From Thermoplasmata archaeon (lineage in GTDB: Archaea > Thermoplasmatota > Thermoplasmata > Lutacidiplasmatales > UBA184), in NCBI GenBank assembly GCA_021806135.1, contig JAJZYB010000006.1, forward strand, positions 7,735 through 71,734: 64,000 bases of DNA, given 5' to 3'. Below are positions 13,571 to 40,100 of this stretch, piece after piece. The notes below the pieces were generated by a model. It saw nothing but the letters and a program-made list of their open reading frames with translations, ran no database searches and was not told the origin of the DNA. Positions within the stretch are counted from its first letter, which is position 1, and every line of letters begins with the position of its first letter. The position numbers and the translations under genes were made by a program.

Positions 13571-13583
13571 GTGAACCATTTCG

Positions 13584-13605
13584 GGGGGTCTGAAAAGACC
13601 CCCTT
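13584..13605 (+). terminator. Perfect hairpin immediately after the S53 gene stop (GGGGGTCT-GAAA-AGACCCCC) followed by a T-containing tract
   Basis: Inverted repeat with 8-bp GC-rich stem and GAAA loop 14 nt after the stop codon at 13570. Confidence 0.5.
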
Positions 13606-13882
13606 GACCTTTCCTCCACGGAGGGGTTGAGCAGGGTGGGAGGCGGGTGAGAGCCCGCGTTCTGGTTACTGGGGACCGGGAGGCAGGACCTTGCCGGGAC
13701 CGTCGCGGTGAGTCGGTCGTGGACTCTGAGGGAACCCCTGACTGTGGGGCCCCTCTCTCACTTTCCCCTCCCGGCAGGGGGGAAGGATTGGAGCTTTAGG
13801 CAGATCGCGGGAGGATTCATGGAATGCAGATCCCGTTCAATGGGCAGTCTCCCCGGGAAGCAACCCTTATCCCTGAGGGCCC

Positions 13883-14134
13883 TTGCGCCTTGCTGATATG
13901 GACGGACCCTTGGTCTTCCTCTCCCAGTTCATGGAGCGGAAGGTGGTGGTCCGGCTCAAGGACGCGCGGACCCTGGAAGGCCGCCTCCTGGGGTTCGACG
14001 AGCATCTCAACCTGGTGCTCGACGAGACCTTGGAGCGGAACGACGAGGCGGGTCGCCGTCTGGGACGGGTGGTGGTACGAGGGAACAACGTGCTCGCGCT
14101 GAACGCACCCCCCGGCCCCGGCGCTCCCGCGTGA
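13883..14134 (+). CDS. Sm-like (LSm/SmAP) RNA-binding protein
   Basis: PLVFLSQFMERKVVVRLKDARTLEGRLLGFDEHLNLVLDETLE...RLGRVVVRGNNVLAL matches the archaeal Sm1/Sm2 motifs; start may be the Met at 13898. Confidence 0.8.
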   Translation: MRLADMDGPLVFLSQFMERKVVVRLKDARTLEGRLLGFDEHLNLVLDETLERNDEAGRRLGRVVVRGNNVLALNAPPGPGAPA

Positions 14135-15851: not shown

Positions 15852-15860
15852 AGGGACCCC

Positions 15861-16673: not shown

Positions 16674-16748
16674 GAGCGTGGGCGAACTCCCCTCCCTAGA
16701 ATCTTATCCACCTCCCCGGTTCCGCCCTCCCATCGAGGACCCTTCGTC

Positions 16749-23486: not shown

Positions 23487-24359
23487 TCAGGCGAGGCCGC
23501 TCAGGAGCTTCTCGTAGCGGGCCCGGTTGGCCTCCAGCGAGATCTCGGCGGTCGCCGGGGCGGACTCGACGGTGGGAATCAGGGTCCGGTCCAAGGAGGG
23601 GGCCAGCCGGTCGTCCGACGGGCGGAAGAGCAGTCCCACCGGTATCCTCCCGGCGGCGATGGTGGACAGGCAGCCGGCGATCGCCTTGGTCCGGTCCGTC
23701 CGGTCGTAGCCGGGAACGGTATCCACGTTCTGGACCTGTTCCCGCCACTCCTTGTACGTGTCGTTGTACGTGACACAGGGGGAGAGGATCTCCACGAAGG
23801 CGAACCCCCGCCGCTCCCGGTTGAACTGGATCGCCTGGGTGATGAGCTGCCCCGCCTCCCGGGGCGCCCCAGAGAATCCCCGTGCCACGAACCCGCTGGA
23901 GGGGATGCTCATGGCGAGGAGCGTGGCGTCGAAGGGGGTCTCCACGTTCCCCGAGAAGCCTACCGGCGCCGTGGGAGAGGCCTGGCCCTTCGTCAACCCG
24001 TACGTCTCGTTGTTCATCACCACGTAGGTGAGGGCGGCGTTCTTCTTCAGCGCGTGGACGAAGTGCCCCATGCCGATGGCGTAGCCGTCCCCGTCACCCC
24101 CGATGGCCAGGACCGTGAGCTTCGGGTTGGCCAACTTCACGCCCACCGCGGTGGGGAGAAGCCTCCCGTGCAGGGAGTGGAACCCGTATCCCTCCATGAA
24201 ATTGTGGATGGCCCCCGAGCAGCCGATGCCTCCCACCAGGACGGTCTCCTCCGCGGGGACCTTGAGCTCCGTGAGCGCCCGTTTGATGGCGGCCATCACG
24301 CCGAAGTCCCCGCAGCCGGGACACCAGATGGGCGAGGTGGGCTTGGCGGTCTCGGTCAC
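23487..24359 (-). CDS. korB: 2-oxoacid:ferredoxin oxidoreductase, beta (TPP-binding) subunit
   Basis: WCPGCGDFG...GIGCSG...GGDGDGYAIG motifs. Confidence 0.85.
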   Translation of the reverse strand: MTETAKPTSPIWCPGCGDFGVMAAIKRALTELKVPAEETVLVGGIGCSGAIHNFMEGYGFHSLHGRLLPTAVGVKLANPKLTVLAIGGDGDGYAIGMGHFVHALKKNAALTYVVMNNETYGLTKGQASPTAPVGFSGNVETPFDATLLAMSIPSSGFVARGFSGAPREAGQLITQAIQFNRERRGFAFVEILSPCVTYNDTYKEWREQVQNVDTVPGYDRTDRTKAIAGCLSTIAAGRIPVGLLFRPSDDRLAPSLDRTLIPTVESAPATAEISLEANRARYEKLLSGLA

Positions 24360-26161
24360 GGCCGTCCCTCCGTCACGCGCTTGACCAGTGCCGGGGCCCG
24401 GAACGCGTTCCCATCGTACTGGACGATGCTCGAGAAGGATGACCGGGGGAGCGCCTGGCGGAGCAGCAGGGCGAGCTGGCCGGTGAAGTTATGCTCCACC
24501 ACGAACGCGCGTTCCACGGTGGCGAGGAACTCCTCCACCTCGGCGGTGGGGACCGGCCAGAGGGTGCGGGCCTGGAAGAAGCGGGAAGAGATGCCCCGGC
24601 CGGCGAGCAGGCGCTGGGCCTCCCGGATCGGTCCGTAGGTGCTCCCGTAGCCGACGAACCCAACCTGTCCCCGGGCCTCCCCGTAGATCCGCGCCCGGGG
24701 GAGGTCCCCCCGGGCCCGTTCCATCTTCCCCAGCCGCTTCGCCATCATCCGGCGGCGGTTCTCCGGGTTCACCGAGACGTGCCCCCACTCGTCGTGCTCG
24801 TTGCCGGTGGTCTGGCCCATCCCGCCGCGCTGGCCCGGAACGCTCCGGGGGGAGATCCCATCGTCGGTGAAGAGGTAGCGTTTGTAGACGGGAAGTGCGG
24901 CGAGCGCTTCCTGGCTGAGGAGCTTGCCCCGGTCGATCCGCACCTTGGAGAGGTCGAAGGGCTCCGAGCTCTGGGTGTACTCGCTCAGGTTCTCGTCGAG
25001 CAGCAGGAAGACGGGGAGTTGCCACTTCTCCGCGAGGTTGAGGGCCTCCACGGTCAGCTCGAAGGCGTCGGCGGGAAAGCCCGGGGCGAGGACGAACCGG
25101 GGAAACTCCCCGTGGGAACCGAAGACCACGTGGAGAAGATCGCTCTGTTCGTGCCGGGTGGGCTCCCCAGTGCTCGGCCCGACCCGCTGGCAGTCCACGA
25201 TGACCACGGGGACCTCGGCCTGCCCGGCATGCCCCATCCCTTCCGTCATGAGGGAGAGCCCAGGCCCGCTGGTGGCGGTCATGCTCCGGGCCCCCGCGTA
25301 GGCGGCCCCGATGGTCATGTTGATGGCGGAGAGCTCGTCCTCCGCTTGCCGGACCACCCCACCGAAGGTGGGGAGCCACCGGGTGAGATGGTCCATGATG
25401 GGGGTGGCCGGGGTGATGGGGTAGCCGGCGAAGAAGCGGCCCCCGCCGACCACGAAGCCCAGGGCGGCGGCCTGGTTCCCGGTGGTCAGGATGGACCGGG
25501 TGTTCGTCCCCGGCTCAAGGAGGAAGAGGGGGTTTGCCCCCACCTGTTCCCGGGCCAGCGTGCGGCCCAGGTCGAAGGCGCTGAGGTTCTTCTGGAGCGC
25601 TTCCCCGCCCCGGCGGCCGAACCGTCCCTCGATGACCCCCCGGGCCTTCGTCTCGTCAAAGCCCAACAGATGCGAGAGCGCCCCGTAGGCCACGGTGTTC
25701 TTGTAAAGACCGTTGCCCACCTTGCTGGCCGCCGTCAACGAGAGCGGCAACAGGTACAGCCGCTCGGGGCCCTCGCTCACCCCGCCTTGGTCTCCCAGGA
25801 TGAACCCTTCGGGGTCGAGTTCGGCCTGGCCGATGCGCACCGCCTCGTCATCGAAGGCCACCAGGACGTCCTGGGTGGCCTTCTGGGCCCAGACCGGCTC
25901 CACGCTCCCCCGGGTGGAGGCGTCGGCATGCCCTCCCCGGATCCGGGAGAGCACGTTGCGAGCGGTGTAGACGTACAGGTGCTGCTCGTGGAAGTACCGG
26001 CCCAGGAGGTCGGAGACGGTCAGGGTCCCGTCCCCCCCCTGCCCGCCGATCATCACGGAAAGGTCCTTCCGTGGCCCGGCCCGGCGCGTCGAGGGGGGGA
26101 GCCGCTCGCTCGGAACGGGGGTGGACAGGTCGGTGGCCGGTGTGGTGGTCATGGTGATCAA
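24356..26161 (-). CDS. korA: 2-oxoacid:ferredoxin oxidoreductase, alpha subunit (fused gamma-alpha type of two-subunit OFORs)
   Basis: 601 aa; N-terminal gamma-like domain (MIGGQGGDGTLTVSDLL) fused to the alpha domain; 4-nt overlap with korB. Confidence 0.8.
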   Translation of the reverse strand: MITMTTTPATDLSTPVPSERLPPSTRRAGPRKDLSVMIGGQGGDGTLTVSDLLGRYFHEQHLYVYTARNVLSRIRGGHADASTRGSVEPVWAQKATQDVLVAFDDEAVRIGQAELDPEGFILGDQGGVSEGPERLYLLPLSLTAASKVGNGLYKNTVAYGALSHLLGFDETKARGVIEGRFGRRGGEALQKNLSAFDLGRTLAREQVGANPLFLLEPGTNTRSILTTGNQAAALGFVVGGGRFFAGYPITPATPIMDHLTRWLPTFGGVVRQAEDELSAINMTIGAAYAGARSMTATSGPGLSLMTEGMGHAGQAEVPVVIVDCQRVGPSTGEPTRHEQSDLLHVVFGSHGEFPRFVLAPGFPADAFELTVEALNLAEKWQLPVFLLLDENLSEYTQSSEPFDLSKVRIDRGKLLSQEALAALPVYKRYLFTDDGISPRSVPGQRGGMGQTTGNEHDEWGHVSVNPENRRRMMAKRLGKMERARGDLPRARIYGEARGQVGFVGYGSTYGPIREAQRLLAGRGISSRFFQARTLWPVPTAEVEEFLATVERAFVVEHNFTGQLALLLRQALPRSSFSSIVQYDGNAFRAPALVKRVTEGRP

Positions 26162-26211: not shown

Positions 26212-26220
26212 GTATTTAAC
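26212..26220 (-). promoter_or_regulatory. TATA-like box (TTAAATAC on minus) in divergent korAB / leuA intergenic region
   Basis: Only AT-rich element between korA start (26161) and leuA start (26345). Confidence 0.35.
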
Positions 26221-26344: not shown

Positions 26345-27646
26345 ATGGCCGGCCTCTCCTCGACCCTGCCCCTGGTGGAAGACCCGCACGAACTGGCCCG
26401 TGACCAACGGCACCTCCCGGACCGGCTCGTCCTGTGGGACGAGACGCTCCGGGACGGGGAGCAGATGCCGGGGGTGCACTTCTCCCCGGCGGAGAAGCTC
26501 GCCATCGCGGAGAAACTCTCCGAGGTCGGGATCCCGCTGTTGAACGCGGGGATCCCCGTGGTGAGCCCCGAGGAGGCCGAGAGCGTCCACCGTCTGGCCC
26601 ACGCGGGCCTGAAGGCCAAGGTCCTGGCGGCGGCCCGGACCGTGCCCGGCGACGTGGAGGCGGTGATCCGCTCGGGGGTGGACCACATCGCCATCTTCGT
26701 GGCCGCCTCCCAGGTCCACCTCCGCTACAAGCTCAAGATGACCGAGGACGAGGTCCTCGCCGCCTCGGTGGCCCAGGTCCGACGGGCGCACCAGGCGGGC
26801 CTCCACGTGGCCTTCGTCACCGAGGACACCGTCCGCGCTCCCTTCCCATTCGTGGAGCGCCTTTACCGGGCCTGCCGGGAAGCGGGAGCGGACCGGCTCG
26901 TGGTGAGCGACACGGTGGGGATCATGACCCCGAGCACCTTCCGGGCTTTCCTCCGAGAGTTCCGGCGCCGGGTGGAGCCGACCGATTGGTCCGTCCATTG
27001 CCACAACGATTTCGGGATGGCCACGGCGAACACCTTGACCGCGCTGGAAGAGGGCGTCCAGTCGCCTCACGTCTGCGTCAACGGGCTGGGGGAGCGCGCG
27101 GGGAACACCTCCCTGGAGGAGGTGGTGATGTCGCTCGAGGCCCTCTACGGCTACCGGACCGGCATCCGGACGGAAGCGCTCTACGAGCTCTCCCGCCTGG
27201 TGGAGGAACTCTCCGGGATCCCGATCCCCCCCAACAAGGCCCTGGTCGGCTACAACGCGTTCGCCCACGAGGCCGGGATCCACAGCCACGGCGTCCTCCG
27301 GCATACCCTCACCTACGAACCGATCCAGCCGGAGCGGGTGGGACGCCATCGTCTGTTCGTGCTCGGCAAGCACACCGGGAAGGCGGCGGTGGTGGAGAAG
27401 CTCAAGGAACGCCGGCTGGAGGCCACCGAGGCCCAGCTCACTTCCCTCCTCTCCCGGGTGAAGGCCGAAGCGGAGCGCAGGGGAAAAGGCCCCTCCCGGG
27501 AGTTCCTCGGCCGCTACCATGCCCTGTTCGAGAACCCGGGGCTCGACGAGGAGGAGTTCTTCTCCTGGGCCCGTGAGGTCGGGATCCATGCCGGCCCCGA
27601 ACCCGCCCTGCTGGCCTCCCCCGGAGCGAAGGGGAGTGGGCCATGA
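26345..27646 (+). CDS. 2-isopropylmalate synthase/homocitrate synthase family enzyme (short form without LeuA regulatory domain)
   Basis: DxTLRDGEQ motif (LWDETLRDGEQMPG), HCHNDFGMATANTLTALEEG; ~430 aa; first gene of leuCDB-like cluster. Confidence 0.75.
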   Translation: MAGLSSTLPLVEDPHELARDQRHLPDRLVLWDETLRDGEQMPGVHFSPAEKLAIAEKLSEVGIPLLNAGIPVVSPEEAESVHRLAHAGLKAKVLAAARTVPGDVEAVIRSGVDHIAIFVAASQVHLRYKLKMTEDEVLAASVAQVRRAHQAGLHVAFVTEDTVRAPFPFVERLYRACREAGADRLVVSDTVGIMTPSTFRAFLREFRRRVEPTDWSVHCHNDFGMATANTLTALEEGVQSPHVCVNGLGERAGNTSLEEVVMSLEALYGYRTGIRTEALYELSRLVEELSGIPIPPNKALVGYNAFAHEAGIHSHGVLRHTLTYEPIQPERVGRHRLFVLGKHTGKAAVVEKLKERRLEATEAQLTSLLSRVKAEAERRGKGPSREFLGRYHALFENPGLDEEEFFSWAREVGIHAGPEPALLASPGAKGSGP

Positions 27647-28965
27647 GCCCGGCGGAGGCCCTGCCTGGGGCGTCCTCCCCCTCGGTCCGGTCCCCCGGAG
27701 GAGGACAGACCCTCGCTGAGAAGATCCTGGCCCGGGCCTGCGGGAACCCTTCCGTGGTCCCGGGGCAGATCGTGGTGGGTCAGGTGGACCTGGCCATGGC
27801 CCACGAACAAGGGGCCCAGGCGATATTGCCCTTCCACCAGATGGGGGCCGAACGGGTCTGGGACCCGGAGCGGGTGGTCATCGCCATCGACCACTGGGTC
27901 CCAGCGTCCACCGAGGGGGCCGCCACGCTGCACCAGATGCTCCGGCATTTCGCGAAGGAGCAGCACCTCCCCCACTTCTACGACATCGGGCGCCACGGCA
28001 TCTGCCACCAGATTTTGGCGGAGAACGGCTGGGTGGTCCCCGGGGACCTGGCGGTGGGCACGGACTCGCACACGAACATGCTAGGGGCCATGGGCGCCTT
28101 CGCCGTGGGGATCGGCCCCACCGAGTACGCGGCGGTCCTGGCCACCGGGAAGATCTGGCTCAAGGTCCCCCCCACCCTCCGCCTCACCGCGGACGGGCGC
28201 CTGGGAAAGGGGGTCTACGCGAAGGACCTCGTCCTCCGTCTCCTCGGCGAGGTGAAGGTCACCGGGGCGACCTACAAGGCCGTGGAGTTCGACGGGGGAA
28301 CCATCCAGGGGCTCTCCATGCCCGAGCGCTTCACCCTCTGCAACATGACCACGGAGATGGGCGCCAAGGCCGGGATGGTCGCCCCGGACGAGAGGACGTT
28401 CCATTATCTGGAGGGCATCGCCAAGCACTCCATGCACCCGGTCGTCCCGGACCGGGACGCCCGGTACGAGCGGGAGGTCCACGTGAATGTGGACGACCTC
28501 GAACCCCAGGTGGCCTGCCCGTACTCCCCGGACAACGTCCGCCCGCTCGCGGAGGTCGCCCGGGAACATGTCCGGATCGACCAGGCCTTCCTCGGTTCGT
28601 GCACCAACGCACGGATGGAGGATCTTCGGGAGGCCGCCGCGATCTTCCGGGGGGAGAAGGTGGCCCCCGGGGTGCGCTTCATCGTCTCCCCGGCCTCCAC
28701 CCGGATCTACCAGGAGTGCCTCAAGGAAGGGCTGGTGGGGGTCTTCACGGATGGCGGGGCCGTCTTCACCAACTCGAGCTGCTCGGCCTGCTTCGGGGGG
28801 AACATGGGCCTCCTCTCTCCTACGGAGGTCTGCGCCTCGAGCTCCAACCGGAACTTCCCGGGCCGGATGGGCGCGAAGGAGGCCCAGATCTACCTCATGT
28901 CCCCCGCCGCGGTGGCGCTCAGTGCGATCCGGGGAGAGGTCGCCGACCCCCGGGAGGTGCTCTGA
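27643..28965 (+). CDS. leuC: 3-isopropylmalate/homoaconitate dehydratase large subunit
   Basis: Aconitase-family motifs (GTDSHT, GSCTNAR, NRNFPGRMG); overlaps upstream stop. Confidence 0.85.
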   Translation: MSPAEALPGASSPSVRSPGGGQTLAEKILARACGNPSVVPGQIVVGQVDLAMAHEQGAQAILPFHQMGAERVWDPERVVIAIDHWVPASTEGAATLHQMLRHFAKEQHLPHFYDIGRHGICHQILAENGWVVPGDLAVGTDSHTNMLGAMGAFAVGIGPTEYAAVLATGKIWLKVPPTLRLTADGRLGKGVYAKDLVLRLLGEVKVTGATYKAVEFDGGTIQGLSMPERFTLCNMTTEMGAKAGMVAPDERTFHYLEGIAKHSMHPVVPDRDARYEREVHVNVDDLEPQVACPYSPDNVRPLAEVAREHVRIDQAFLGSCTNARMEDLREAAAIFRGEKVAPGVRFIVSPASTRIYQECLKEGLVGVFTDGGAVFTNSSCSACFGGNMGLLSPTEVCASSSNRNFPGRMGAKEAQIYLMSPAAVALSAIRGEVADPREVL

Positions 28966-29486
28966 TGGGAACACCGCTCAAGGGCCGGGTCTGGTGCGTG
29001 GGGGATGACCTGGACACGGACCAACTGATCGCCGGCAAGTACCTGACCATCATCGACCCGGAACTGCTCAAGCGCCACGTCCTGGAGAACGTGGAACCCC
29101 GCTTCTCCCAGGAGGCCCGGGTGGGCGACCTCCTGGTGGGGGGGATCAACTTCGGCTGTGGCTCCTCCCGGGAGCATGCCCCGGCGGCCCTCAAGGCCAT
29201 CGGCCTGGGGGCGGTGGTGGCCGATTCCTTCGCGCGGATCTTCTTCCGCAACGCCATCAACCTGGGCCTTCCGGCCGTGGAGGCCCCGGGGGTCCGTGCC
29301 CTCTTCCAGCCGGGGGACCAGGCCGAGGTGGACCTGGAACGCGGGACGGTGGAGAACCGCACCCGGGGGGGCTCGGTCCGTTTCGAGCCCTTCCCGAAGC
29401 ACCTGAAGGAGATCCTGGAGGCTGGCGGTCTCGTGGAGAAGGTGCGGCGGGAGCTCCATCCACCGGCCCCGGGAGCCGCTCCGTGA
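28965..29486 (+). CDS. leuD: 3-isopropylmalate/homoaconitate dehydratase small subunit
   Basis: MGTPLKGRVWCVGDDLDTDQLI...GINFGCGSSREHA swivel-domain motifs; ATG overlaps leuC TGA (ATGA). Confidence 0.85.
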   Translation: MGTPLKGRVWCVGDDLDTDQLIAGKYLTIIDPELLKRHVLENVEPRFSQEARVGDLLVGGINFGCGSSREHAPAALKAIGLGAVVADSFARIFFRNAINLGLPAVEAPGVRALFQPGDQAEVDLERGTVENRTRGGSVRFEPFPKHLKEILEAGGLVEKVRRELHPPAPGAAP

Positions 29487-30616
29487 GTCGGGGAAGCTAC
29501 GACGTGGTCCTCCTCCCGGGGGACGGGACCGGACCGGAGGTGATCCGGGAGGGACGAAAGGTCCTCCAGGCGCTCGAGCTCTCCGGAACGCCCTCCCTCC
29601 GCCTCACCGAGGTGGCCTGCGGGGCCCAGTATTACCAGCGGACGGGGTCGGAGTGGGAGCCCGGGGGGCTCGAGCGCGCGCGGAGGGCCGACGCCATCCT
29701 CCTGGGGGCCGTGGGGTGGCCGGGGGTGAACCTTCCGGACGGCAACATCGCCGGCTTCGGGGTGGTCTTCGGCCTGCGCCTGGGGCTCGACCTGTATGCC
29801 AACGAGCGGCCCTGCCGCCTCTATCCCGGGGTGAAGCACCGGCTGGGAGGGGCCTTCACCCAGATCTGGGAGCCGGGGAAGGTGGACGTGCTCTTCTTCC
29901 GGGAGAACACCGAGGGGCTCTACACCCCGGCCCACGGGGAGCTGACCCGGGGGGGGACCACCGAGGTGGCGATCGACACCCGCGTGATCACCCGGAAGGG
30001 GAGCGAGCGGATCATCCGGCGTGCCTTCGAGGCCGCCCGGTCCCTTCCCCGGGGAGCCCCGGAGGACGGCGTCCGTCGGGTCACCTGTGTGGACAAAGCG
30101 AACGTGCTCCGGGGCTGCCAGTTCTTCCGGAAGGTCTTCGACGAGGTGGGATCGGAGTACCCGGACATCGCCCGCGAGTACGCGTATGTCGACGCGTTCA
30201 CCCAGTGGCTCATCCGCTCCCCCGAGCATTACCAGGTGGTGGTCACCACCAACCTGTTCGGGGACATCGTGACGGACCTGGCCGCCAGCCTGCAGGGGGG
30301 CCTCGGATTCGCCGCAGGGGGGAACGTGGGGGACCACCACGGCATGTTCGAGCCTGTCCACGGCTCCGCCCCCAAGTATGCCGGGAAGAACCAGGTGAAC
30401 CCTTTCGCCACGTTCCAGGCGGTGGGGATGATGCTCCGTTGGCTCGGGCGGGAGCACCAGGAGGACCGGCTGCGGGAGTCGGCCGAACGGTTGGAGCTCG
30501 CCATCTCCCGGGTGCTCGCCGCCGGGAGCGCCCGGACCTACGACCAGGGAGGGCACGTCACCACCGCGGAAGCGGGGGACCGGGTGGTGGAGGCGCTCGG
30601 CGAGGAACGACGATGA
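29483..30616 (+). CDS. leuB: 3-isopropylmalate/homoisocitrate dehydrogenase family
   Basis: Isocitrate/isopropylmalate DH family; VVLLPGDGTGPEV, NLFGDIVTDLAASLQGGLG; overlaps neighbours by 4 nt. Confidence 0.8.
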   Translation: MSRGSYDVVLLPGDGTGPEVIREGRKVLQALELSGTPSLRLTEVACGAQYYQRTGSEWEPGGLERARRADAILLGAVGWPGVNLPDGNIAGFGVVFGLRLGLDLYANERPCRLYPGVKHRLGGAFTQIWEPGKVDVLFFRENTEGLYTPAHGELTRGGTTEVAIDTRVITRKGSERIIRRAFEAARSLPRGAPEDGVRRVTCVDKANVLRGCQFFRKVFDEVGSEYPDIAREYAYVDAFTQWLIRSPEHYQVVVTTNLFGDIVTDLAASLQGGLGFAAGGNVGDHHGMFEPVHGSAPKYAGKNQVNPFATFQAVGMMLRWLGREHQEDRLRESAERLELAISRVLAAGSARTYDQGGHVTTAEAGDRVVEALGEERR

Positions 30617-31797
30617 ACGGCCCGTTGCGCAGGGTGGCCTTGGTCGGGGGGGGCATCACTCCCTTCGGCGTGCGCGCCGCCACCTTCCCCGAGCTCATCC
30701 AGGAGGCAGGCGCCCGGGGGTTCGGGAGCCTGCCGAACCTCGCGCCGGAGGACGTGGACAGCCTTTTCGTCGGCGCCGCCCAGCCCGAACGGCTGGCCTT
30801 CCAGTCCCACGTGGCCCCCCTGGCGGCGGAACTCCTCGGGCTCACCCCGACCCGGGTGATCCAGCGGACAGAGCTCGCCTGCGCCTCCGGCCAATCGGCG
30901 CTGCGCAGCGCCTACGCCGCCATCGCCTCGGGGCTCTCCGACCTGGCCGTGGTCCTCGGGGTGGAGAAGATGAACCTGCCGGACATGGCGGAGGCGAACA
31001 CCTCCATGGCGGACGTGCTGGACCGTCCCTGGGACGGGGTCCACGGGGCCACGGCCCCTCCCTTCTTCGCCATGGTCGCGCAGCGGCACATGCACGAGTA
31101 CGGCACGACCGAGGAACAGCTCGCCTTGGTCTCGGAAAAGAACCACCGGTTCGCGAACCGGAACCCCACGGCCCAGTTCCAGGGGAAGGTCTTCACCCGG
31201 GAGAAGCTCCGGGGACTCCCGGTGGTGGCCCCTCCCCTCCGGCTGGGGGACTGCTCCTCCATGACCGACGGGGCCGCGCTCGCGGTCCTCGTGGAGGGGT
31301 CCCGGGCGCGGGAGTTCACCGATACGCCGGCCTGGCTGGTGGGAAGCGCCCAGTGCTCGACCTTCCACAACCTCGCCCACGCCGGCTCCCTCTCCTCCTG
31401 GGAGGGGCTGCGGAAGGCGGGCCAGGAGCTCTACCGGAGCTCCGGGCTGGGCCCGAAGGACGTCCAGGTCGCCGAACTGCACGACTGCTTCACCATCTCG
31501 GAGATCGTCGAGTACGAGGAGCTGGGGTTCTGCCCGAAGGGAGAGGGGGGGCGCTTCGTGGAGGAGGGGCAGAGCGACCTCGGCGGACGGGTGACGGTGA
31601 ACCCTCGGGGCGGGCTCCTGGGATGCGGGCATCCGCTCGGCGCCACCGGCGTCGCCCAGGCGGTGGAGATCCTCGGCCAGCTCCAGGGAACGGCCCCCTC
31701 CGGCCGACAGGTCCCCGGTGCCGCGGTGGCCCTCCAGCACAACCTCTCCGGTAGCGCCAACGTCCATTCCCTGCTGCTCTGGCGGAGGGAGAATTGA
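30613..31797 (+). CDS. Archaeal thiolase-like protein (acetyl-CoA C-acetyltransferase/ketoacyl-CoA thiolase family)
   Basis: RVALVGGGITPFG..., Cys active-site region ELACASGQSAL, C-terminal GCGHPLGATG; start overlaps leuB stop. Confidence 0.75.
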   Translation: MNGPLRRVALVGGGITPFGVRAATFPELIQEAGARGFGSLPNLAPEDVDSLFVGAAQPERLAFQSHVAPLAAELLGLTPTRVIQRTELACASGQSALRSAYAAIASGLSDLAVVLGVEKMNLPDMAEANTSMADVLDRPWDGVHGATAPPFFAMVAQRHMHEYGTTEEQLALVSEKNHRFANRNPTAQFQGKVFTREKLRGLPVVAPPLRLGDCSSMTDGAALAVLVEGSRAREFTDTPAWLVGSAQCSTFHNLAHAGSLSSWEGLRKAGQELYRSSGLGPKDVQVAELHDCFTISEIVEYEELGFCPKGEGGRFVEEGQSDLGGRVTVNPRGGLLGCGHPLGATGVAQAVEILGQLQGTAPSGRQVPGAAVALQHNLSGSANVHSLLLWRREN

Positions 31798-32357
31798 CGG
31801 CGAGCACTCCTTCTGGCCAGTCGTCTGGGGCTGGGGGGGATGCCGGGACGACCCTCCCCCGGAGCGACGCGCTCGCCTCCGAGCGCCCTCCCCGTCGGGA
31901 GGAGCCCCCGGACCCCTCTCCACTGACGCTGTTGGACTTCTACCCCCCCCAGGACCCGCGATGGACGCGGATCGCCCCGTTCTTCTTGGCCCTCAAGGAC
32001 GGACGATTCACCACCACCCGGTGCACCCGGGATGGGACATTCCACTGGCCCCCCGCCGTGGCCTGCCCAAAATGTCACCGGGAGGAGCTTCAGTGGGTGG
32101 ACCTGCCCACCCACGGACGGCTCTACGCTTTCAGCGAGGTCCGGGGAGGGGCTCCGCTCGGCATGGAGGGGGGAGTTCCTTTCGTGGTGGGCCTCGTGGA
32201 CCTCCCCGGGGCTCCCCTCCGGCTCTTCAGCCGGATCGTGGGCCGGCCCTATGCCGAGCTTGCCCTGGGGGAGCCGGTCCGGTTCGAGACCTTCCCGATC
32301 CGGGACGGCCGCCTCTTCTACCGGTTCCGCGCGGGTGGGGAGCCGGCCACCCGTTGA
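31794..32357 (+). CDS. DUF35-type OB-fold/zinc-ribbon protein (thiolase/HMG-CoA synthase-associated scaffold protein family)
   Basis: CTRDGTFHWPPAVACPKCH zinc ribbon followed by OB-fold-like segment; immediately downstream of and overlapping the thiolase, as in archaeal thiolase-DUF35 pairs. Confidence 0.65.
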   Translation: MTASTPSGQSSGAGGDAGTTLPRSDALASERPPRREEPPDPSPLTLLDFYPPQDPRWTRIAPFFLALKDGRFTTTRCTRDGTFHWPPAVACPKCHREELQWVDLPTHGRLYAFSEVRGGAPLGMEGGVPFVVGLVDLPGAPLRLFSRIVGRPYAELALGEPVRFETFPIRDGRLFYRFRAGGEPATR

Positions 32358-32472
32358 GACGGTGTGGCATACCGTCCAACTTTCCGGCCCGGTTCAGGAA
32401 CCGTCTCTCAAGAGCCCCCGGCCCTCCTCTCGGCCGGGCCCGGGAGGGCCCAGGGAAGGAAGGACCAGGAAC

Positions 32473-33900
32473 ATGAACGCCATGAGCATGCCCAGAACGA
32501 CCACCCTCGCGCTGGCGGGCCTCCTGCTGCTGGGGATCGCACTTCCCCTGGTGTCGGCGAGCCCCGCCCCCGCGCTGAACCCCTCGAACCCGCCGCAGAC
32601 CTGGGCCTATGGGGGCCAGGGAGTCTTCAACGAAAAGATCTCCACCAGCGGGTTGGTGAACGCCAGCTACACCGTCCATGCGTACCTGGCCTTCAGCGTG
32701 GTCCTGACCCAGACCAACACCACCAACCAGACGTTCACTCTCGAGGCGGTCCGGACGGTGGACCTGAGCTTCTTCGCACAGGGATGTTCGCCCAACTGCG
32801 TCCAGCCCCAGCGGGAGCTCAACGTCTCCCTGATCGGGAGCGAGCGCGACCGGCTCTTCGGGAACTTCACGCTCGCGGGGAACGTCACCGAGAACGGCAC
32901 GCAGGTTCCTGCCCTGGCGATCCTGAACGCCCAGGCGCACCTGGGCGCGAACCTGACCGAGAGGGGCCAATGGACTCTCTCCCGGCTGGGATTCGCCTCC
33001 AACGGGAGCGTCTTCCTGAGCGCCCAACGGGCGGCGCAGGGCAGCCTGGTCTTCTCCCCCGGGCTCGGCCTGGTCCCGCTCAGCCTGTCCCCGGACACCC
33101 ACTGGAACTCCACGAGCGAGTACGCCTCCCAGGGGAACGATTCGGTGGCCTGCCAGTGGTCGGTGGTGCTCGGAAGCCGCAGCAACGCCGGGAACTGCAG
33201 CGCCACCCACCAGCTCCTCTCCAACGGGACCGTCCGCCTGAACGGGGAAGACCGGGGGGCCTCGGGCCTCGTCTTCGGCCATGCGCACGCCCGGGCCCTT
33301 TCCCTCGAGGTGGAAGGGCTTGGGGGATGGCGGAGCACCGACGGGCTCCTCTTCCTCCCGGGGTCCGAGGAACTCTGGGATGACAGCAGCCTCGGGCCGG
33401 TGAGCGCCGGTTTCGCTTCCCTCGCCACCAGTCAGGTGGACTACGAAGGCGGGCTCGGGCACCTGGGGATCATTGCGTCCAGTGCGCTCTACCAAGGCAT
33501 CCTCCCGACCGGGATCCCCGGCGGGGGTGCCGGATCTGCCGCGCCCAGCGCCGCCGTGCTCCCTGCGACCTCACCGGCGTGGACCGTGAACGCGACCCCG
33601 GAGAGCGTCCAGCAGGCCCAGTGCGTGTCGACCGGCTGCGCTCAAGGCACCGCCCCCGGGCCCTCCTACGCGGGAGGGTTCGGGCTTCCGCTGGGGCTGC
33701 TCGCGCTGGCCGGGGCCGGCGCGCTCGCGGGGGTTGTGGCGGCCGTCCTCCTGCTCACCCGCCGGCCGCCTCGGAGCCCGATGGGGGCGTACTCCACCCG
33801 CCCGCCCTCAGCCTTCCTGCTGAACGGACGGATAGCCCCCCCCGCACCAGGCTCGCCCGTCCCTCCGCCGGCGGGGCCGGCCCGGGAGGCTCGGCGCTGA
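32473..33900 (+). CDS. Secreted, tail-anchored surface glycoprotein (hypothetical)
   Basis: Signal peptide MNAMSMPRTTTLALAGLLLLGIALPLVSASPA, ~20 N-x-S/T sequons, C-terminal TM (LGLLALAGAGALAGVVAAVLLL) plus basic residues. Confidence 0.55.
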   Translation: MNAMSMPRTTTLALAGLLLLGIALPLVSASPAPALNPSNPPQTWAYGGQGVFNEKISTSGLVNASYTVHAYLAFSVVLTQTNTTNQTFTLEAVRTVDLSFFAQGCSPNCVQPQRELNVSLIGSERDRLFGNFTLAGNVTENGTQVPALAILNAQAHLGANLTERGQWTLSRLGFASNGSVFLSAQRAAQGSLVFSPGLGLVPLSLSPDTHWNSTSEYASQGNDSVACQWSVVLGSRSNAGNCSATHQLLSNGTVRLNGEDRGASGLVFGHAHARALSLEVEGLGGWRSTDGLLFLPGSEELWDDSSLGPVSAGFASLATSQVDYEGGLGHLGIIASSALYQGILPTGIPGGGAGSAAPSAAVLPATSPAWTVNATPESVQQAQCVSTGCAQGTAPGPSYAGGFGLPLGLLALAGAGALAGVVAAVLLLTRRPPRSPMGAYSTRPPSAFLLNGRIAPPAPGSPVPPPAGPAREARR

Positions 33901-34016: not shown

Positions 34017-34085
34017 CAGGGCCGTTCCCCCGTGACCTGTCGGGACATGGCGTGGTCGCTTCCTCTCGATAAAACAGCTCCAAAG

Positions 34086-34093
34086 TATAAATA
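34086..34093 (+). promoter_or_regulatory. TATA box (TATAAATA) with upstream A-rich BRE-like sequence, ~50 nt upstream of aglB start
   Basis: Only AT-rich octamer in an otherwise ~70% GC intergenic region. Confidence 0.45.
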
Positions 34094-34140
34094 TCGGGTC
34101 GGGTCTCGCGCGCCTCGATCCCCTCTCAGGTTCCAACTTC

Positions 34141-37100
34141 ATGGTCGATTCCATTGATGGCAGCGGGGGGTGGTGGCGACGCCACGGCCTGGTGGTCTTC
34201 CTCCTGGCCCTGGCCGCCTCCATCTCGCTCATCCTCCGGGTCCTGTACTCCTACCAGCTGATCTCCACCTGTGACGTCTACTATTGCTTCGCCGGGGGAT
34301 CGGACTCCTTCTACCACGCCCGGGTGATGCAGTACATCATCACCTACCACACGAACCTCATCCACGACGCGGCGCTGAACTACCCGTTGGGCTACACCAA
34401 CCCCCGGGAACCGCTGTTCGACTGGATGAACGCCATCTTCGGGATCCTGCTCGCCCCGTTCTTCGGCGGGAACGCGGTCCAGGCGGGAATGTGGGTCCTC
34501 GAGATGCAGCCGGCGATATGGGCCGCCCTCGGGGTCTTCCCCGTCTACCTGCTGGGGAAGGAGGTCTCGTCCCGGCGGATGGGGGTCGTCGCCGCCCTCC
34601 TCTTCCCCCTCATCGTGGGGAACATGGAGAGCACGGTGGCGACCTATGCCAATTACCTGTCCTTCTACGCGTTCTTCGTGGTCCTTTCCCTGGCCCTCTT
34701 CATCCATACGGCCAAGCTCGCGGGGACCCGCCGCTGGGTGGAGAGCTACCGGTCCCCCCGGGCGGTCTGGGCGGGGCTGAAGGCGTTCGCCCGGACCGAG
34801 GAGATGTCCGTCCGCTGGGCGGTCCTCACCGGCGTCACCCTGGGCGCCACCATGCTCGCCTGGCAGGGGTATACCTACGTGGTGGCCGTGGTGGTGATCT
34901 TCCTGGCCGTCGTCCTGGTGGTGGAACGCATCCGGGGCCTGGACTCCTTCGGCCTCTACGTGGTGACGCTCATCGTGGGCACCGTGGGCTTCCTCATGGC
35001 CATGCCCTACTACTACATCCAGGGGGACTTCGGGTACTGGTTCACCGTCCCGCTCTTCCTCTGGTTCGGCGGGCTGTTGGTGCTCCTGCCCTTCCTCTTC
35101 CTGAGGAACGCCCCCTGGGTGGTCTCCGTGCCTGCGCTCTTCCTCTCCGTCCTGGCCGCGGCCGGGGGCCTCTACCTGTACAACCCCGCGTACTTCAGCG
35201 CGGTGCTCACCGGGCAGGGCTACTTCATCAAGAGCCTCATCTACTCCACCGTCGCCGAGGCGCAGGCCCCGAGCTTCGACGCGCTCATCGTGAGCTACGG
35301 GGTGCTCACCTTCTTCCTGGCCTTCGCGGGGCTTGCGCTGTTCCTCTACTATCTCTACGCCCACCGGTTCCGCCGGGAGCACGTCTTCATGGTGATCTTC
35401 AGCCTGCTGGGGATCTACCTCCCGGTCTCGGCGGCGAAGTTCTTCCTCTTAGGATCGCCGGTCTTCGCCCTCCTCCCGGCGGAGGTCGTCCTGGTGGGGA
35501 TCGACCGGCTGGGCCTCCCGCAGATGCGCCGGAACTTCGCCTCCCTCGGGGGAAGGGGGAACCGCTGGCTCGCCCTCCGCCGCTCGGTGAAGCTCCGTCA
35601 CGTGGCGGTGGGCCTCATCCTGATCGCGCTCCTGCTCCCGAACGTCTGGTATGCCACGGACGCGGCCATCCCCTACAACGTGAAGGCCCAGTACAACCAG
35701 CAGGTCTACAACTCGCTTCCGCCGGGGCTGAGGGCCTCTCCCGCGAATGCCACCTCCGCCTACTTCGGCGCCGCGGGGATCCAGGTGGACACTCCCACCC
35801 AGTATGACGAGAGCGGGTACAATTGGTTGGCCCAGCAGGATACGAACATCCTGCCGATCAGTTCGCGTCCCGCCTTCATCAGTTGGTGGGATTACGGGTT
35901 CCAGGCGCTGGATCAGGGCCAGCATCCCACGGTCGCCGACAACTTCCAGGATGGGATCGACCCTTCCGGTAATTTCCTGCTGGCCCAGAACGAGTCAGCC
36001 GCCATCGGGGTCATGGCGGCGGACCTCCTCTACGCCGAGGCCCAGACCTCCGGGAAGCCGTACCTCCCGGCCGCTTTGAACGCGCAACTGGCCAACGACA
36101 ACGTGAACTTGACCCTGCTTCACGCCTACCTGGCCAACCAGACCGCCGACGTGAGGATCGTCCTGGGGAACCCGAACCTCTACGGACCGTTCAACCCTGC
36201 CACCATCAGCCCACTGAGCGCCATGTACAACGTGGTCTCCATCTTCCTGGCCTCCAGCCTCTCGGAGAACCAGGTGGTGAAGGTCTACCAGGACGTCCAG
36301 GCCTACACGGGCTGGAGCATCCGTTACGCCATGTCCAACAGCCTGCTCTTCCCCTCGTCCGGGAGCAACACGGGGATCTTCTACGCCCCGGCGGACCTCA
36401 CCGGCCGGGTGATCAGCTCCGGGGGCATCCCCACGGGATTCTTCCAGGTGACGGTCCTCGGCACGGACGGGAACACCTACATCCTCGGCCAGCAACCCCC
36501 CGGCGTGGGCGTGGCCTCCTACAACATCAGCTACGCCCCCTCGTTCTTCAACAGCATGATCTACCGCTTCTTCGCCGGGTACAACGGGACCGACATCGGT
36601 GCCGGGGCCGGCATCCCCGGGCTGTCGAGCTCGCTGTCGAACTACCAGCCCGAGCCCGGCTGGATGATGCAGCACTTCATGGTGGGGTACCGGACGGCCT
36701 ACTGGTGCCCCTACAAGGACTACCAGGCGCATCCCAACTGCTTCGTCGCGGTGAACTACCAGCAGGCGCTGGCCTACCAGACCGCGGGGATCGGGACGGT
36801 GGACCTCTCGCCGACCTCGTATTACAGCAACGGCGAGACGATCATGGAATACTACCCCGGGGCGACGGTGGTCGGGTCGGTCCGGCTGGCCGACGGGAAG
36901 CCCGCCCCGGGTCTCCGGGTCACCGTGCTGGACCAGTACGGCACCCCCCACATGACCGTCACCACCAACGCCCTGGGCGGCTACTCCCTCATCGCCCCGC
37001 CGGGCCCGGTCTCGGTGGTGGTGAGCTACGGGGCGCTCGACCCGCTCACGCAGGAGGGGGCCTACGTGGTGGCGGAGCAGAACCTCACGATCACCCAGGC

Positions 37101-40100
37101 CCAGGCCTACCAGACGGACCCGGCCCCGGTGCCGGTGAGCTTCTCGCTGCCGTCGAGCACGGTGAGCGGACAGGTCTACTTCAACGAGGCCCGCACGAAC
37201 GCCTTCGCCTCGAACGACACGATCCTTCCGCTCGCCCCGGTCCTCCTGGCGAGCACCACCGGCGGGCTCACCTACCGGGGGACGACCGATGCGAGCGGAT
37301 TCTTCCAGTTCGGCGATGTGGCGCCGGGAAGCTACGCGCTCCAGGTGAAGGTGGGCTCCACCCTGGTGAACTACACCACCGTCGACGTGAGCCGGGGGGG
37401 CCCCATCACCGAGAGCGTCGGTCTCGCCCCCGGCCGGGTCATCGGACAGGTGGTCTCTCGCACCGGCCTGCCCGTCGGCTCCGCCACGGTGAGCCTCGTC
37501 TCTGTGACGAATGGCTCGGTCCGTTCGTTCGTGACGAACGGGACGGGCAACTTCTCCTTCACTCCGTTGGCGCCCGGGAACTACTCCCTCCGGGCCAGCG
37601 TCCCCGGGGGTCTCTCCTCGACGCCGTTGAGGCTCTCCGTGACCAAACTGGGGACCAACCTCACGGAGACCCTCACCGTGGAGGTGCCGGTGACCGTGAC
37701 CCTCTCGGTCGACTACCACGGCTTCCCCCTGCCCAACGTGCCGGTCCGCTTCACCCCCCTGGGGACGGTGAGCAATTCCACCAGCACCGCCAACCAGTCC
37801 TACCTCTTCTTCTCCAACGGCGGCGGGACGATCACCGCCCAGGTCCCCGAGGGGAACTGGTCGGTCTACGCGCTAGCGGCCGTGAACGGGACCTACGTGG
37901 CCGGCATGGGGAACCTCCTGCTGACGGCAGGGCCGGCTTCCGGCTACGCTGGGACCCTGTCCCTCCTCCCCGCGGGTCTGCTCTCCGGCTCCACCTATAT
38001 TGCGGGTACGCCGGCTCCCGAGGGAGGGGTCACCCTCCTCATCCAGAGCGCGCAGGGAGCTGTCCTCCCCGCCTACTCGAACGCCTCCGGCCGCTACCAG
38101 CTCTATCTTCCGGTGGGCAGCTACACGTTCCTCGCAAGCTATCCGGGCACGAGCCCCCTGTCCAAGGTGGCCCTGGGGGGAGTGACCCTTGGTACCTCCC
38201 CGCTCACCCTCAACCTGGACCTGGGGAGCGGGTTCTCCTTCGTCCCCCAGGTGGGCTACCTCAACGCCACCGGTGCCTTCTCTCCCCTTCCGGGGGCCCG
38301 GGTGAACCTCACGGCCCAACCGGGCTCCACCCTCCAGCTCCTCACGGGAGGGGCGGGGAACCTGACCGTCCGGCTACCCCTGGGGAACGTCACCTACTCG
38401 GTCAGCGTCAGCGCACCGGGCTTCCTGTCCTACGCGCGGACGGACCTCACTCCCTCCACCCTCAGCGGGATCAGCCGGGTGACCCTCACCCCGGCCCCGG
38501 TGCCGGTGGCGATCTACGGGCCCGGGCTGCCGGCGGGTTCGAGCCTTCCGCAGTTCAACGTGACCTATCTCCTAAGCGGAGCGACCGTCGATGCGCGGGG
38601 GAACCCGGCAAACTTCTCGCTGGCCCCGGGGAGCTACGTCATCAACGGGTACGCGACCGGCCCGGGCTCCAACCGGACGGTCTACCGGCCCCTGGCCGCT
38701 GTGCCGTTGACCGTGCCGCTGGGCTCCCCGGGGATCACCGTGACGGCCTACCTCTACCCCCAGCGGACGTACGTGGGCAACCTCACGGGCACCTCGCTCG
38801 GCAACGGAACGCTCAACCGGGCCTCCGTGAAGGTCTATGGCCAGCCTGGGAACCTCACCTTCAGTGGGGTGCAGTTCCGGACGAGCTTCCTTGCCCCACC
38901 GGGGAACTATACCATCTGGGCCACCACCCAGGGGCTGTCCGGTTCGTACGCCTTCTTCGGGAACGTGACACTCCTGTCGAACGGCACCCTCTCCCCACGC
39001 CAGCTCAACCTCTCCCGGGCCGGGAGCCTGACGGCGAGACTCCAGACGCTGGGGGGAGTCGCCGTGAACCGGAGCCTTTCGGTCACGGTCCAGGACCTCT
39101 CGGGGGGCTCGGTGGACCTCCGCACTACGGGTAGCGGAGGCCTCGACCTGGTCCTGCCGGCGGGAACCTATCGCTTCCGGGTGAATGCCACCGCTGCGTG
39201 GGCCCCTTCCGGCCCGGCACGGAACTTCACGTTCCAGACGGTGGGGAACGTCACCTGCACGGTGGTGGTCGGGGGCCAGAACTCCAATTGCACGGTCCCG
39301 GTCTCCGCCTCGCTTGCCACCACCACGGTGGACCTGGGATTCCGCGTGGGATCGGCGACACCAGCGGGCTACGGCACCCTCTGGGTCTCCCCCCTGGGCC
39401 AGAACGCTTCGGCCCCCCGGCGCTACTCCGTCGCCAGCACGGGGGTCGCCCTCTCCCTGATCCCGGGAACGTATCGCCTCTACGGTGTCCTGGACGCCTC
39501 CGGGGTGCCCTTGGCGGGGTTCGGGAACCTCACCGTTCCCTACTCCCCGGTGCCCGTGGCCTCCACGCTCTCCTTGGGTCCGGGCTGGACGCAGGTGATC
39601 TCGATCTCCTCTCCGTCGGGCCTGCCGACTCCCTCCGGGGTGAACGTCACCCTCACGGGAGCGGGTACGGCCGGAGGGCTGGCCCTGGGGAAGTACCCCT
39701 GGGGCACCCCGGTGACCCTGGTCCTCCCCTCCGGCTCGTTCTCGGTGAGCCTTACCGCGGTGGTGGCCCCCTACGGCCCGGCCGTGAACCTCACCCGGAC
39801 GTTGAGCCTGACGGTGGCGAGCTCCAACGGGGCCGAGTCCACGTCGCTCTCCCCCGACTACTTCCCCTCCGCGAGCCTCACGTCGTTGGGCCCGACGAGC
39901 CTCACCGCGCTCACCGGGAACGCGTTGAGCGTTCCCCTGGTGGTCCGGAACACGGGTAACCAGGTGCTGAACCTGACCATGAACGGGACTCCATCGAACT
40001 GGGCGATCCGCTTCTCCCCGGGCAACTTCACGCTGGTCCCGGGTGGCACCCAGGCCGTGGAGGCAGAGGTCTTAGTGCCCGCCAATGCGCTCTCCACCCA

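Follow-up and report, generated by a model that had tools for sequence, protein, structure and literature searches.

What would a set of genes of the leucine-biosynthesis type have in common with a thiolase, so that both are read as one unit? The question is raised by a 64,000-nucleotide stretch (hereafter the window) of the Thermoplasmata archaeon contig JAJZYB010000006.1, in which six plus-strand open reading frames (ORFs), confirmed at 26345-32357 by ORF listing and translation, encode a short-form 2-alkylmalate synthase (SYN), the dehydratase subunits LeuC and LeuD, the dehydrogenase LeuB, a thiolase (THL) and its DUF35 partner. The six genes form a genuine, tightly coupled operon, inherited vertically in a Lutacidiplasmatales-like lineage of Thermoplasmata, and the locus is most likely a module linking the pool of acyl-CoA and acetyl-CoA to 2-oxoacids, whose substrates, direction of flux and possible physical complex we infer. 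Families were assigned with Pfam and NCBIfam models at the cut-offs of these models, as follows.

26345-27646, plus strand: SYN, short-form 2-alkylmalate synthase of a non-canonical subfamily (HMGL-like and HCS_D2, 433 aa)
27643-28965, plus strand: LeuC-type dehydratase large subunit (aconitase family, E 4e-103)
28965-29486, plus strand: LeuD-type small subunit, predicted isopropylmalate/citramalate-isomerase type (Aconitase_C)
29483-30616, plus strand: LeuB-type beta-decarboxylating dehydrogenase (Iso_dh)
30613-31797, plus strand: THL, catalytic subunit of a two-subunit 3-ketoacyl-CoA thiolase (Thiolase_N and Thiolase_C_1)
31794-32357, plus strand: DUF35 partner subunit with zinc ribbon and OB-fold (zf-ChsH2 and OB_ChsH2_C)

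A first-pass annotation of the window had proposed a translationally coupled operon of six genes, and both the junctions and their conservation among relatives bear this out. Read from the sequence in gene order, the junctions are ATGA (-4, SYN/LeuC), TGATG (-1), GTGA (-4), ATGA (-4, LeuB/THL) and TTGA (-4, THL/DUF35), with a GGAG-like motif 5-10 nt 5′ of each; the overlap of 4 nt that had been described throughout is thus found at four junctions, and that at TGATG is of 1 nt. The DUF35 start is a TTG overlapping the thiolase stop, with GGAGGGAG upstream. Such a start appears credible because the relatives keep a start codon at -3 to +6 relative to the thiolase stop; no other start precedes the conserved domain in L004 and L011, and in L005 the codon is an ATG at +2. 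In the window and in the relatives, a variable linker rich in Pro and Ala, 20-70 residues long, separates the start from the conserved domain.

The window has a GC content of ~69%, and its genes for TiaS, topoisomerase VI, aS21 and a giant AglB-like protein mark it as archaeal. Sequence identical to it is present on two ENA metagenome contigs, and every close homologue comes from a metagenome-assembled genome named 'Thermoplasmata archaeon', including AcS5-116, GCA_022750195.1 and GCA_022749975.1. Going by these matches, the window probably belongs to the Lutacidiplasmatales/TMEG. Lutacidiplasma (type genome AcS3-62, GCA_022750295.1) has ~69% GC and ~2.1 Mb, and comprises aerobic or facultative heterotrophs (PMC9287336).

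Relatives were collected in a one-genome-per-species scan anchored on the thiolase, which gave 80 loci labelled by tblastn with the window proteins, and a metagenome scan supplied further loci. The operon recurs in ~30 related contigs (53-94% protein identity) together with a two-subunit 2-oxoacid:ferredoxin oxidoreductase (OFOR), which lies directly upstream of the operon and divergent from it, and is followed by TiaS. The complete order TiaS < OFOR-beta < OFOR-alpha | SYN > LeuC > LeuD > LeuB > THL > DUF35 is found in L003, L007-L010, L013, L014 and L070, in L055 except for TiaS, where the contig ends, and in L004, L011 and L012 with interruptions by contig ends only, while L005 has no LeuB in the 1.5 kb preceding its contig end. 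Among the metagenome loci, L113, L115, L117, L120, L121 and L130 have the full operon and eight others consistent fragments of it, and L163 and L164 are two further loci with the operon. Identity to the window proteins is 65-92% for SYN, 66-94% for THL and 53-78% for DUF35. The overlap of the LeuB stop with the THL start (ATGA or GTGA) is retained in 21 of 22 related loci, despite ~35% protein divergence. Because of this overlap and of the gene order shared by independent assemblies, the conserved coupling lies far beyond chance, and the linkage first proposed from one sequence holds among relatives.

Coupling may of course arise without a common pathway, if neighbours that lay within ~10 kb of each other in older Thermoplasmata were fused in this lineage and have since been kept by inheritance. 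We regard this as very improbable, since the overlap has been kept in 21 of 22 loci through such divergence, although several observations agree with it: thiolase-DUF35 and SYN-LeuC lie 8-9 kb apart in distant Thermoplasmata, with unrelated genes between them, an unrelated 1.9-kb glycosyltransferase is inserted between LeuD and LeuB in L006, and L108 is without the block from LeuC to DUF35. In this last locus (10001-18078; the contig, of 1.2 Mb, belongs to the same clade), the synthase is retained with TiaS and OFOR and is followed directly by the AglB-like giant gene, the LeuC-LeuD-LeuB-thiolase-DUF35 block being gone as a single unit.

The genes and signals that border the operon are the following.

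23487-24359, minus strand: OFOR beta subunit, second gene of the divergent operon (TPP_enzyme_C and PFO_beta_C)
24356-26152, minus strand: OFOR alpha subunit with fused gamma domain, divergent from the six-gene operon (POR, POR_N and PFOR_II)
26212-26220, strand not assigned: TATA-like AT-rich element GTATTTAAC, the sole one in the 192-nt OFOR/SYN spacer
32358-32376, plus strand: 6-bp hairpin GACGGT-N7-ACCGTC, then CAACTTTCC, read from the sequence

The two OFOR genes share a 4-nt overlap; the start of the alpha gene is the one called on L001, a contig with identical sequence, and its ORF is open to 26161. The alpha subunit scores 592 bits with TIGR03710 (OAFO_sf), over the cut-off of 483, and the beta subunit 265 bits with PRK11866 and 249.6 bits with PorB_KorB, slightly under the cut-off of 261.9. 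By these family models the enzyme would be of a broad, generic type. The stretch from 20 to 36 kb has only four AT-rich octamers, none of them inside 26345-32357, and from 24.2 to 34.0 kb GTATTTAAC is the sole TATA-like element rich in AT; this makes it a candidate for a shared or bidirectional archaeal promoter. In keeping with the joint expression that had been proposed, the sequence scan gives the thiolase no promoter of its own, the operon interior being free of TATA-like elements. The hairpin is a possible, weak candidate for the transcript end and was not picked up by the intrinsic-terminator scan. Since the next gene, at 32473, has no TATA-like element before its start, transcription may continue past DUF35 into it. 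Scans of the window for sigma-70 promoters and intrinsic terminators, the models of which fit an archaeon poorly, gave nothing above shuffled controls, and an Rfam search of the window gave zero RNA families.

To which pathway does the thiolase/DUF35 pair belong? It had been expected that an archaeal pair of this kind would partner HMG-CoA synthase (HMGCS), but archaea often carry several ketothiolase/DUF35 pairs with different roles, and a Sulfolobus pair scaffolds enzymes of fatty-acid synthesis (bioRxiv 10.1101/2024.07.05.601840). The first-pass annotation had also stated that no HMGCS gene is adjacent, and this was found to be right: tblastn with the 6ESQ_I sequence, rebuilt from the PDB alignment, found no HMGCS in the 64-kb window or less than 10 kb from any of the ~80 relatives, the only hits being HMGCS-like pseudo-enzymes beside a different thiolase, and a second query, S. 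aureus MvaS, had no match in the window or the clade. The pair might nonetheless be a housekeeping acetoacetyl-CoA thiolase, with HMGCS encoded elsewhere, co-regulated with leucine-type genes as both consume acetyl-CoA. Such a role is suggested by the best solved match of THL, the mevalonate thiolase of M. thermolithotrophicus (6ESQ_A, 232 bits), by the occurrence of the pair in nearly all sampled members of the order, and by the motifs CxS, GHx and HDxF that define archaeal ACATs (PMC12960953), all of which are present in the translation as ACASG, CGHPLG (GHP) and HDCF. These motifs do not discriminate, however, because relatives in a beta-oxidation context carry them too. THL reaches 324 bits with the mevalonate thiolase model NF053570, the cut-off of which is 600, and the match of its DUF35 partner to 6ESQ_E (27.9 bits) is no better than those to BbsA or ChsH2 (27.9-30.5 bits). 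Distant Thermoplasmata hold two thiolases, of which THL1 shares 59% identity with the window THL and adjoins an enoyl-CoA hydratase (ECH), whereas THL2 is 41-43% identical to the window THL, reaches 419 bits on NF053570 and has a partner DUF35 domain that scores 98.9 bits with 6ESQ_E. In a neighbour-joining tree, which carries no support values, 6ESQ_A groups with the THL2-type enzymes, and the window THL with THL1, Archaeoglobi and haloarchaea.

The closest relatives of the pair outside the order (54-59% identity) are those of Archaeoglobi, haloarchaea and other Thermoplasmata. In the first two they sit in clusters of FadB-like, thiolase and DUF35 genes (with amidohydrolase or acyl-CoA ligase), and in other Thermoplasmata they are ECH-linked pairs. 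Halobacterium hubeiense provides a cultured example on pSTJ001 (HHUB_RS13495-13480, RefSeq), where a 3-hydroxyacyl-CoA dehydrogenase (HADH), a thiolase of 57% identity, an OB-fold protein and a long-chain fatty acid-CoA ligase are encoded in one FadB-to-FadD series with overlapping codons. The NF053570 score, the weak match to 6ESQ_E, the clade in the tree, the FadB operons and the lack of an HMGCS gene in the neighbourhoods searched together indicate that the pair is a paralogue of beta-oxidation type and not the mevalonate thiolase, and a housekeeping role in mevalonate synthesis is in our judgement unlikely.

Two further observations were made on DUF35 proteins. The zinc ribbon reads CxxD...CxxC in 22 of 22 clade members (L003-L014, L055, L070, L113-L130) and CxxC...CxxC in 56 other relatives. 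A second thiolase gene of distant Thermoplasmata is followed directly by a gene that joins an HMGCS-like domain to DUF35 in one protein of ~460 aa (L036 at 19057-20436, L026, L031, L037, L040, and L165 at 8001-9410), with an architecture resembling PhlA plus PhlB. This family has 40 members among 5.8 billion proteins, with zero on contigs of the clade of the window, and some are annotated HMG-CoA synthase by JGI. The fusions were first taken as a mevalonate pair, a view given up when the nucleophile Cys was seen to be Thr and the catalytic Glu to be lost; being pseudo-enzymes that are absent from contigs of the clade, they are uninformative on the mevalonate pathway here.

The synthase at the head of the operon had been described as a short form without the LeuA feedback domain, and Pfam agrees, finding HMGL-like and HCS_D2 in its 433 aa and no LeuA_dimer regulatory domain. 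SYN reaches no NCBIfam cut-off: its best equivalog match is NF002085 (445.6 bits, cut-off 517), with lower scores for TIGR02660 (370, 463) and TIGR02146 (317, 414) of the homocitrate synthase (HCS) type, TIGR00973 (324, 599) and the model of the citramalate synthase CimA, TIGR00977 (189.6, 450). It matches TIGR02090 with an E of 1e-127, and resembles S. acidocaldarius HCS (251 bits) and the isopropylmalate synthase (IPMS) of N. meningitidis (250 bits) to the same degree. All catalytic and metal residues of the DRE-TIM fold (R13, D14, E141, T171, H202 and H204 in E. coli) are kept in SYN and in 120 homologues, by which SYN is predicted to be catalytically intact. The substrate pocket is another matter, as seen at E. 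coli LeuA positions L73/H97/E137/S139/N167/P169, in a numbering that agrees with the published positions H97, S139, N167 and P169.

Canonical LeuA: L-H-E-S-N-P
SYN of the window: A-A-A-V-V-S (A96/A116/A156/V158/V186/S188)
S. acidocaldarius HCS: H-A-R-T-S-A

Engineered LeuA with small residues at H97, N167 and P169 accepts larger substrates. The SYN pocket is invariant, or nearly so, across the 120 homologues. It has Ala where M. jannaschii CimA carries Phe and His, and A96 and A156 take the places of the His and Arg of S. acidocaldarius HCS (6KTQ), so that the residues binding a distal carboxylate are absent. The same short form, with its own C-terminal tail of ~50 aa, is present in Archaeoglobi and in many metagenomic lineages of lower GC, where the pockets read PPDVVA, SPDVVA or SLNVVA, while the long forms of the same scan are all LHES[ND]P. 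Judged by its pocket, SYN is a member of a separate subfamily, distinct from canonical LeuA, CimA and HCS, and the early doubt about a canonical LeuA identity was well placed. The TIGR00977 score, and small residues where CimA has the bulky ones that restrict it to pyruvate, speak against an assignment to CimA, although SYN may still act on pyruvate. A reading as Re-citrate synthase with aconitase and isocitrate dehydrogenase was set aside, there being no residue to bind the distal carboxylate. Many homologues of the short-form synthase (P0132, P0140, P0151 and others) are labelled 'homoaconitate hydratase' by NCBI, which clashes with a protein of HMGL-like and HCS_D2 domains and looks like a propagated misannotation.

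The next three enzymes narrow the range of substrates. LeuC passes NF001614 (550 bits, cut-off 385), TIGR01343 and TIGR02086 (484, 410), and LeuD passes TIGR02087 (178, 109). The best solved match of LeuD is 3VBA, the small subunit of the M. jannaschii isopropylmalate/citramalate isomerase (166.6 bits, vs 121.6 for the homoaconitase 2PKP), and its specificity loop is YLTI, compared with YLVY in 3VBA and YLRT in 2PKP; the homoaconitase Arg is absent. By these features LeuD is of the isopropylmalate/citramalate-isomerase type. LeuB has its best NCBIfam match in the isopropylmalate dehydrogenase (IPMDH) model PRK03437 (308 bits, under the cut-off of 393) and its best solved relatives among IPMDHs (3U1H, 201 bits), with tartrate dehydrogenase and homoisocitrate dehydrogenase within ~20 bits, which places it probably nearest to IPMDH, if not decisively. 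Its substrate loop, F-G-V-V-F, is hydrophobic and without Arg. Taken together, the features of LeuCD and LeuB point to uncharged substrates. The first-pass annotation had considered lysine synthesis by the alpha-aminoadipate route as an option; this is unlikely because SYN has no carboxylate-binding His/Arg and LeuD no homoaconitase Arg, and the HCS/AksA reading was dropped on the same pocket residues and LeuD loop.

Short-form synthases keep similar company in other lineages. In the Archaeoglobi locus L019 a PaaK-like gene is divergent from the series SYN-homologue > IorA > IorB > OFOR gamma/alpha/beta > THL > DUF35, with LeuCDB 3 kb on. L084 (46% GC) has LeuC-LeuD-IorA-IorB and, on the opposite strand, THL-DUF35, ECH and HADH, then SYN, an ACS-like ligase and an amidohydrolase, and in L165 and L040 ECH, amidohydrolase, an epimerase-like gene of glyoxalase fold, thiolase, DUF35 fusion, AMP ligase, SYN and LeuCD lie within 17 kb. 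Counted outside the clade of the window, neighbours of OFOR/IOR, thiolase/DUF35, FadB/ECH or PaaK type occur at 15 of 33 short-form loci and at none of 25 canonical long-form loci (Fisher p = 4e-5), the counts being approximate because labels came from tblastn with our own queries and the loci are of unequal length. Both this enrichment over canonical LeuA and the gathering of the same families in different orders in Archaeoglobi and 46% GC metagenomic lineages argue against inheritance of chance neighbours. The association, together with the operon, points to an uncharacterised metabolic link between 2-oxoacids and acyl-CoAs. An Amidohydro_2 gene also lies beside thiolase/DUF35 pairs of Archaeoglobi, Thermoplasmata and an unassigned lineage (L017 12045-12869, L040 13651-14505, L084 13443-14261, L165 5430-6275).

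Our leading, if tentative, reading of the locus is that of an exchange module in a heterotroph degrading fatty acids and peptides, which makes 2-oxoacids one carbon longer as precursors of isoleucine and leucine. SYN would condense acetyl-CoA with an uncharged 2-oxoacid, LeuCD would isomerise the alkylmalate, and LeuB would then decarboxylate it oxidatively. Acetyl-CoA would be supplied by thiolysis and by OFOR, which may also interconvert 2-oxoacids and acyl-CoAs, and a feedback-insensitive SYN would use that acetyl-CoA for 2-oxoacids longer by one carbon, the likeliest products being 2-oxobutyrate and 2-oxoisocaproate. Genes for beta-oxidation, for conversion of propionate to succinate and for branched-chain amino acid degradation are carried by Lutacidiplasmatales (PMC9287336).

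Several points weigh against this exchange module. It is unusual for a catabolic thiolase to share control with an amino-acid pathway, and a plain role in leucine or isoleucine synthesis is not assured because six positions of the SYN pocket set it apart from all characterised IPMS, CimA and HCS enzymes. The pair has LeuB upstream and a gene for a secreted protein downstream, and a search of the 64-kb window gave no acyl-CoA dehydrogenase (ACAD), ECH, HADH, FadB or ilv gene. LeuCDB neighbours show the reverse of the trend above, at 2 of 33 short-form and 8 of 25 canonical loci in the same approximate counts. L108, which keeps OFOR and SYN at the site without the LeuC-through-DUF35 block, is the one clear exception to the linkage, and the neighbour-joining tree used for the thiolase carries no support values.

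The same genes can be read as a chain running forward through the operon. SYN, as a citramalate or recursive alkylmalate synthase, would with LeuCD and LeuB yield 2-oxobutyrate or longer 2-oxoacids, OFOR would convert these to propionyl-CoA or another acyl-CoA, and thiolase/DUF35 would finally condense this with acetyl-CoA to 3-ketovaleryl-CoA or similar, for odd-chain lipids or a storage polymer. The order of the genes is then the order of the steps, with the OFOR step next door; H. mediterranei runs exactly these reactions (PMC7137286), an apple synthase without the regulatory domain drives recursive elongation towards acyl-CoAs (PMC7826400), and genes resembling methylmalonyl-CoA epimerase adjoin related clusters (L040, L165). 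Yet a search of the 64-kb window gave no polyhydroxyalkanoate (PHA) synthase, no ketoreductase and nothing else that would consume 3-ketoacyl-CoA, condensation by a thiolase is unfavourable unless it is coupled to a partner (PMC12960953), the SYN pocket is small where citramalate synthases have bulky residues, and the likeness to the BktB of H. mediterranei is one of family description. We hold such a chain to be rather unlikely.

The company of short-form synthases suggests a further possibility, in which a 2-oxoacid whose acyl-CoA is blocked for beta-oxidation, being aryl or beta-branched (e.g. phenylpyruvate or 2-oxoisocaproate), first gains one carbon by the action of SYN, LeuCD and LeuB and is then turned into acyl-CoA by OFOR/IOR and beta-oxidised, so that cleavage by thiolase/DUF35 would return the acetyl-CoA spent by SYN and acetyl-CoA would act catalytically. 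A need for SYN and thiolase in a 1:1 ratio would account for the translational coupling that is conserved, IorAB, PaaK-like ligases, ECH, HADH and thiolase/DUF35 are what stands beside short-form synthases, and the positions H97, N167 and P169, made small in engineered LeuA, are naturally A, V and S in SYN. But the S139 position holds the bulkier Val, neither the operon nor the window encodes an acyl-CoA dehydrogenase, hydratase or HADH, the partner in the order is a generic OFOR rather than IOR, and we know of no biochemical precedent, all of which makes this lengthening and cleavage quite unlikely. Of wider scope, and possible if doubtful, is an undescribed archaeal route in which one-carbon elongation of 2-oxoacids and two-carbon thiolase chemistry would act on one carbon chain together with OFOR, either with catalytic acetyl-CoA, for blocked 2-oxoacids, or as a hybrid +1/+2 elongation to odd or branched acyl-CoAs. 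If this is true, the short-form subfamily, with its pocket A/S-A/P-A/D-V-V-A/S, is a new specificity class of alkylmalate synthase.

The exchange module and its rivals matter beyond this contig, as archaea of the Lutacidiplasmatales/TMEG are common in acidic soils and peat, are uncultured, and have a carbon metabolism known from annotation alone. Annotation pipelines are inconsistent in naming the synthase 'homoaconitate hydratase' or 'isopropylmalate/homocitrate/citramalate synthase', and name the thiolase 'acetyl-CoA C-acetyltransferase' or '3-ketoacyl-CoA thiolase'; a label of acetoacetyl-CoA thiolase invites filing under the mevalonate pathway. Throughout the order, overlapping codons tie the synthase to the thiolase, and the answer bears on how Lutacidiplasmatales make or degrade branched-chain and odd-chain compounds.

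Other genes of the window are recorded here for completeness. The gene 115 nt 3′ of DUF35 (32473-33900) is a 475-aa ORF without Pfam match; its N-terminus is signal-like, N-x-S/T sites are numerous in it, and this secreted-type gene is missing from some relatives, e.g. L163. It is followed by the 2191-aa gene at 34141-40716, with an STT3/AglB-like N-terminus and repeated CarboxypepD_reg domains; relatives keep this gene 3′ of the operon, and an AT-rich element of its own lies upstream of it at 34069-34095. A Dfp (CoaBC) gene lies at 44131-45411, and genes for succinyl-CoA synthetase beta and alpha, with a 4-nt overlap, at 46147-48197, ~14 kb downstream of the operon. Upstream are a 632-aa ORF without Pfam match (19007-20905) and, at 8500-13600, a low-GC island (50-57%, vs ~69% for the window) with one 1553-aa ORF (8909-13570, plus strand) combining a pro-kumamolisin (S53 sedolisin) activation domain with a C-terminal coiled coil. 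The island was probably acquired horizontally; S53 peptidases are recorded in Lutacidiplasmatales (PMC9287336).

Compared with known systems, the enzyme families are all familiar, and what is new is the conserved coupling, the pocket class and the association with OFOR/IOR and acyl-CoA genes. No description of the operon or of the synthase subfamily was found in literature searches on DUF35 with isopropylmalate and on archaeal DUF35, thiolase and HMG-CoA synthase, in line with the early suggestion that the module may be uncharacterised. The archaeal mevalonate complex of thiolase, HMGCS and DUF35 shares with the window a thiolase co-translated with DUF35 and the CxS, GHx and HDxF motifs; unlike it, the window and its relatives have no adjacent HMGCS, and the pair of the window has a thiolase of another paralogue clade and Asp for the second Cys of the zinc ribbon. 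The FadB-like-thiolase-OB-fold-acyl-CoA ligase operons of haloarchaea and Archaeoglobi have the same overlap of thiolase with DUF35, but the window has LeuB upstream and no acyl-CoA ligase downstream. In the fatty-acid synthase complex of S. acidocaldarius, centred on a ketothiolase and DUF35, a pair outside the mevalonate pathway can scaffold pathway enzymes, although the partners there, a ketoacyl-CoA reductase and a MaoC dehydratase, are not encoded here. The 2-oxoacid elongation of methanogens (CimA/LeuA/AksA, MJ0499/MJ1277, MJ1003/MJ1271) uses the same archaeal families of LeuCD and LeuB, with LeuD of the isopropylmalate/citramalate-isomerase type, and differs in that SYN lacks the canonical pocket and regulatory domain, has its own ~50-aa tail and is coupled to a thiolase.

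In apple, an alkylmalate synthase without feedback domain feeds a recursive one-carbon elongation of 2-oxoacids to products derived from acyl-CoA (PMC7826400), but this is a plant enzyme with no operon and no thiolase. In H. mediterranei, a citramalate/2-oxobutyrate route supplies propionyl-CoA, and a co-transcribed two-subunit BktB makes 3-ketovaleryl-CoA (PMC7137286). Alkylmalate synthase, LeuCD, LeuB, 2-oxoacid oxidoreductase and a thiolase plus OB-fold ketothiolase act there in the same logical order, from separate genes where the window has one locus, and no PHA gene was found in the window. BktB and PhaA of that species, likened to the window pair by family description, are encoded by two-subunit gene pairs, as is the thiolase/DUF35 pair with its TTGA overlap.

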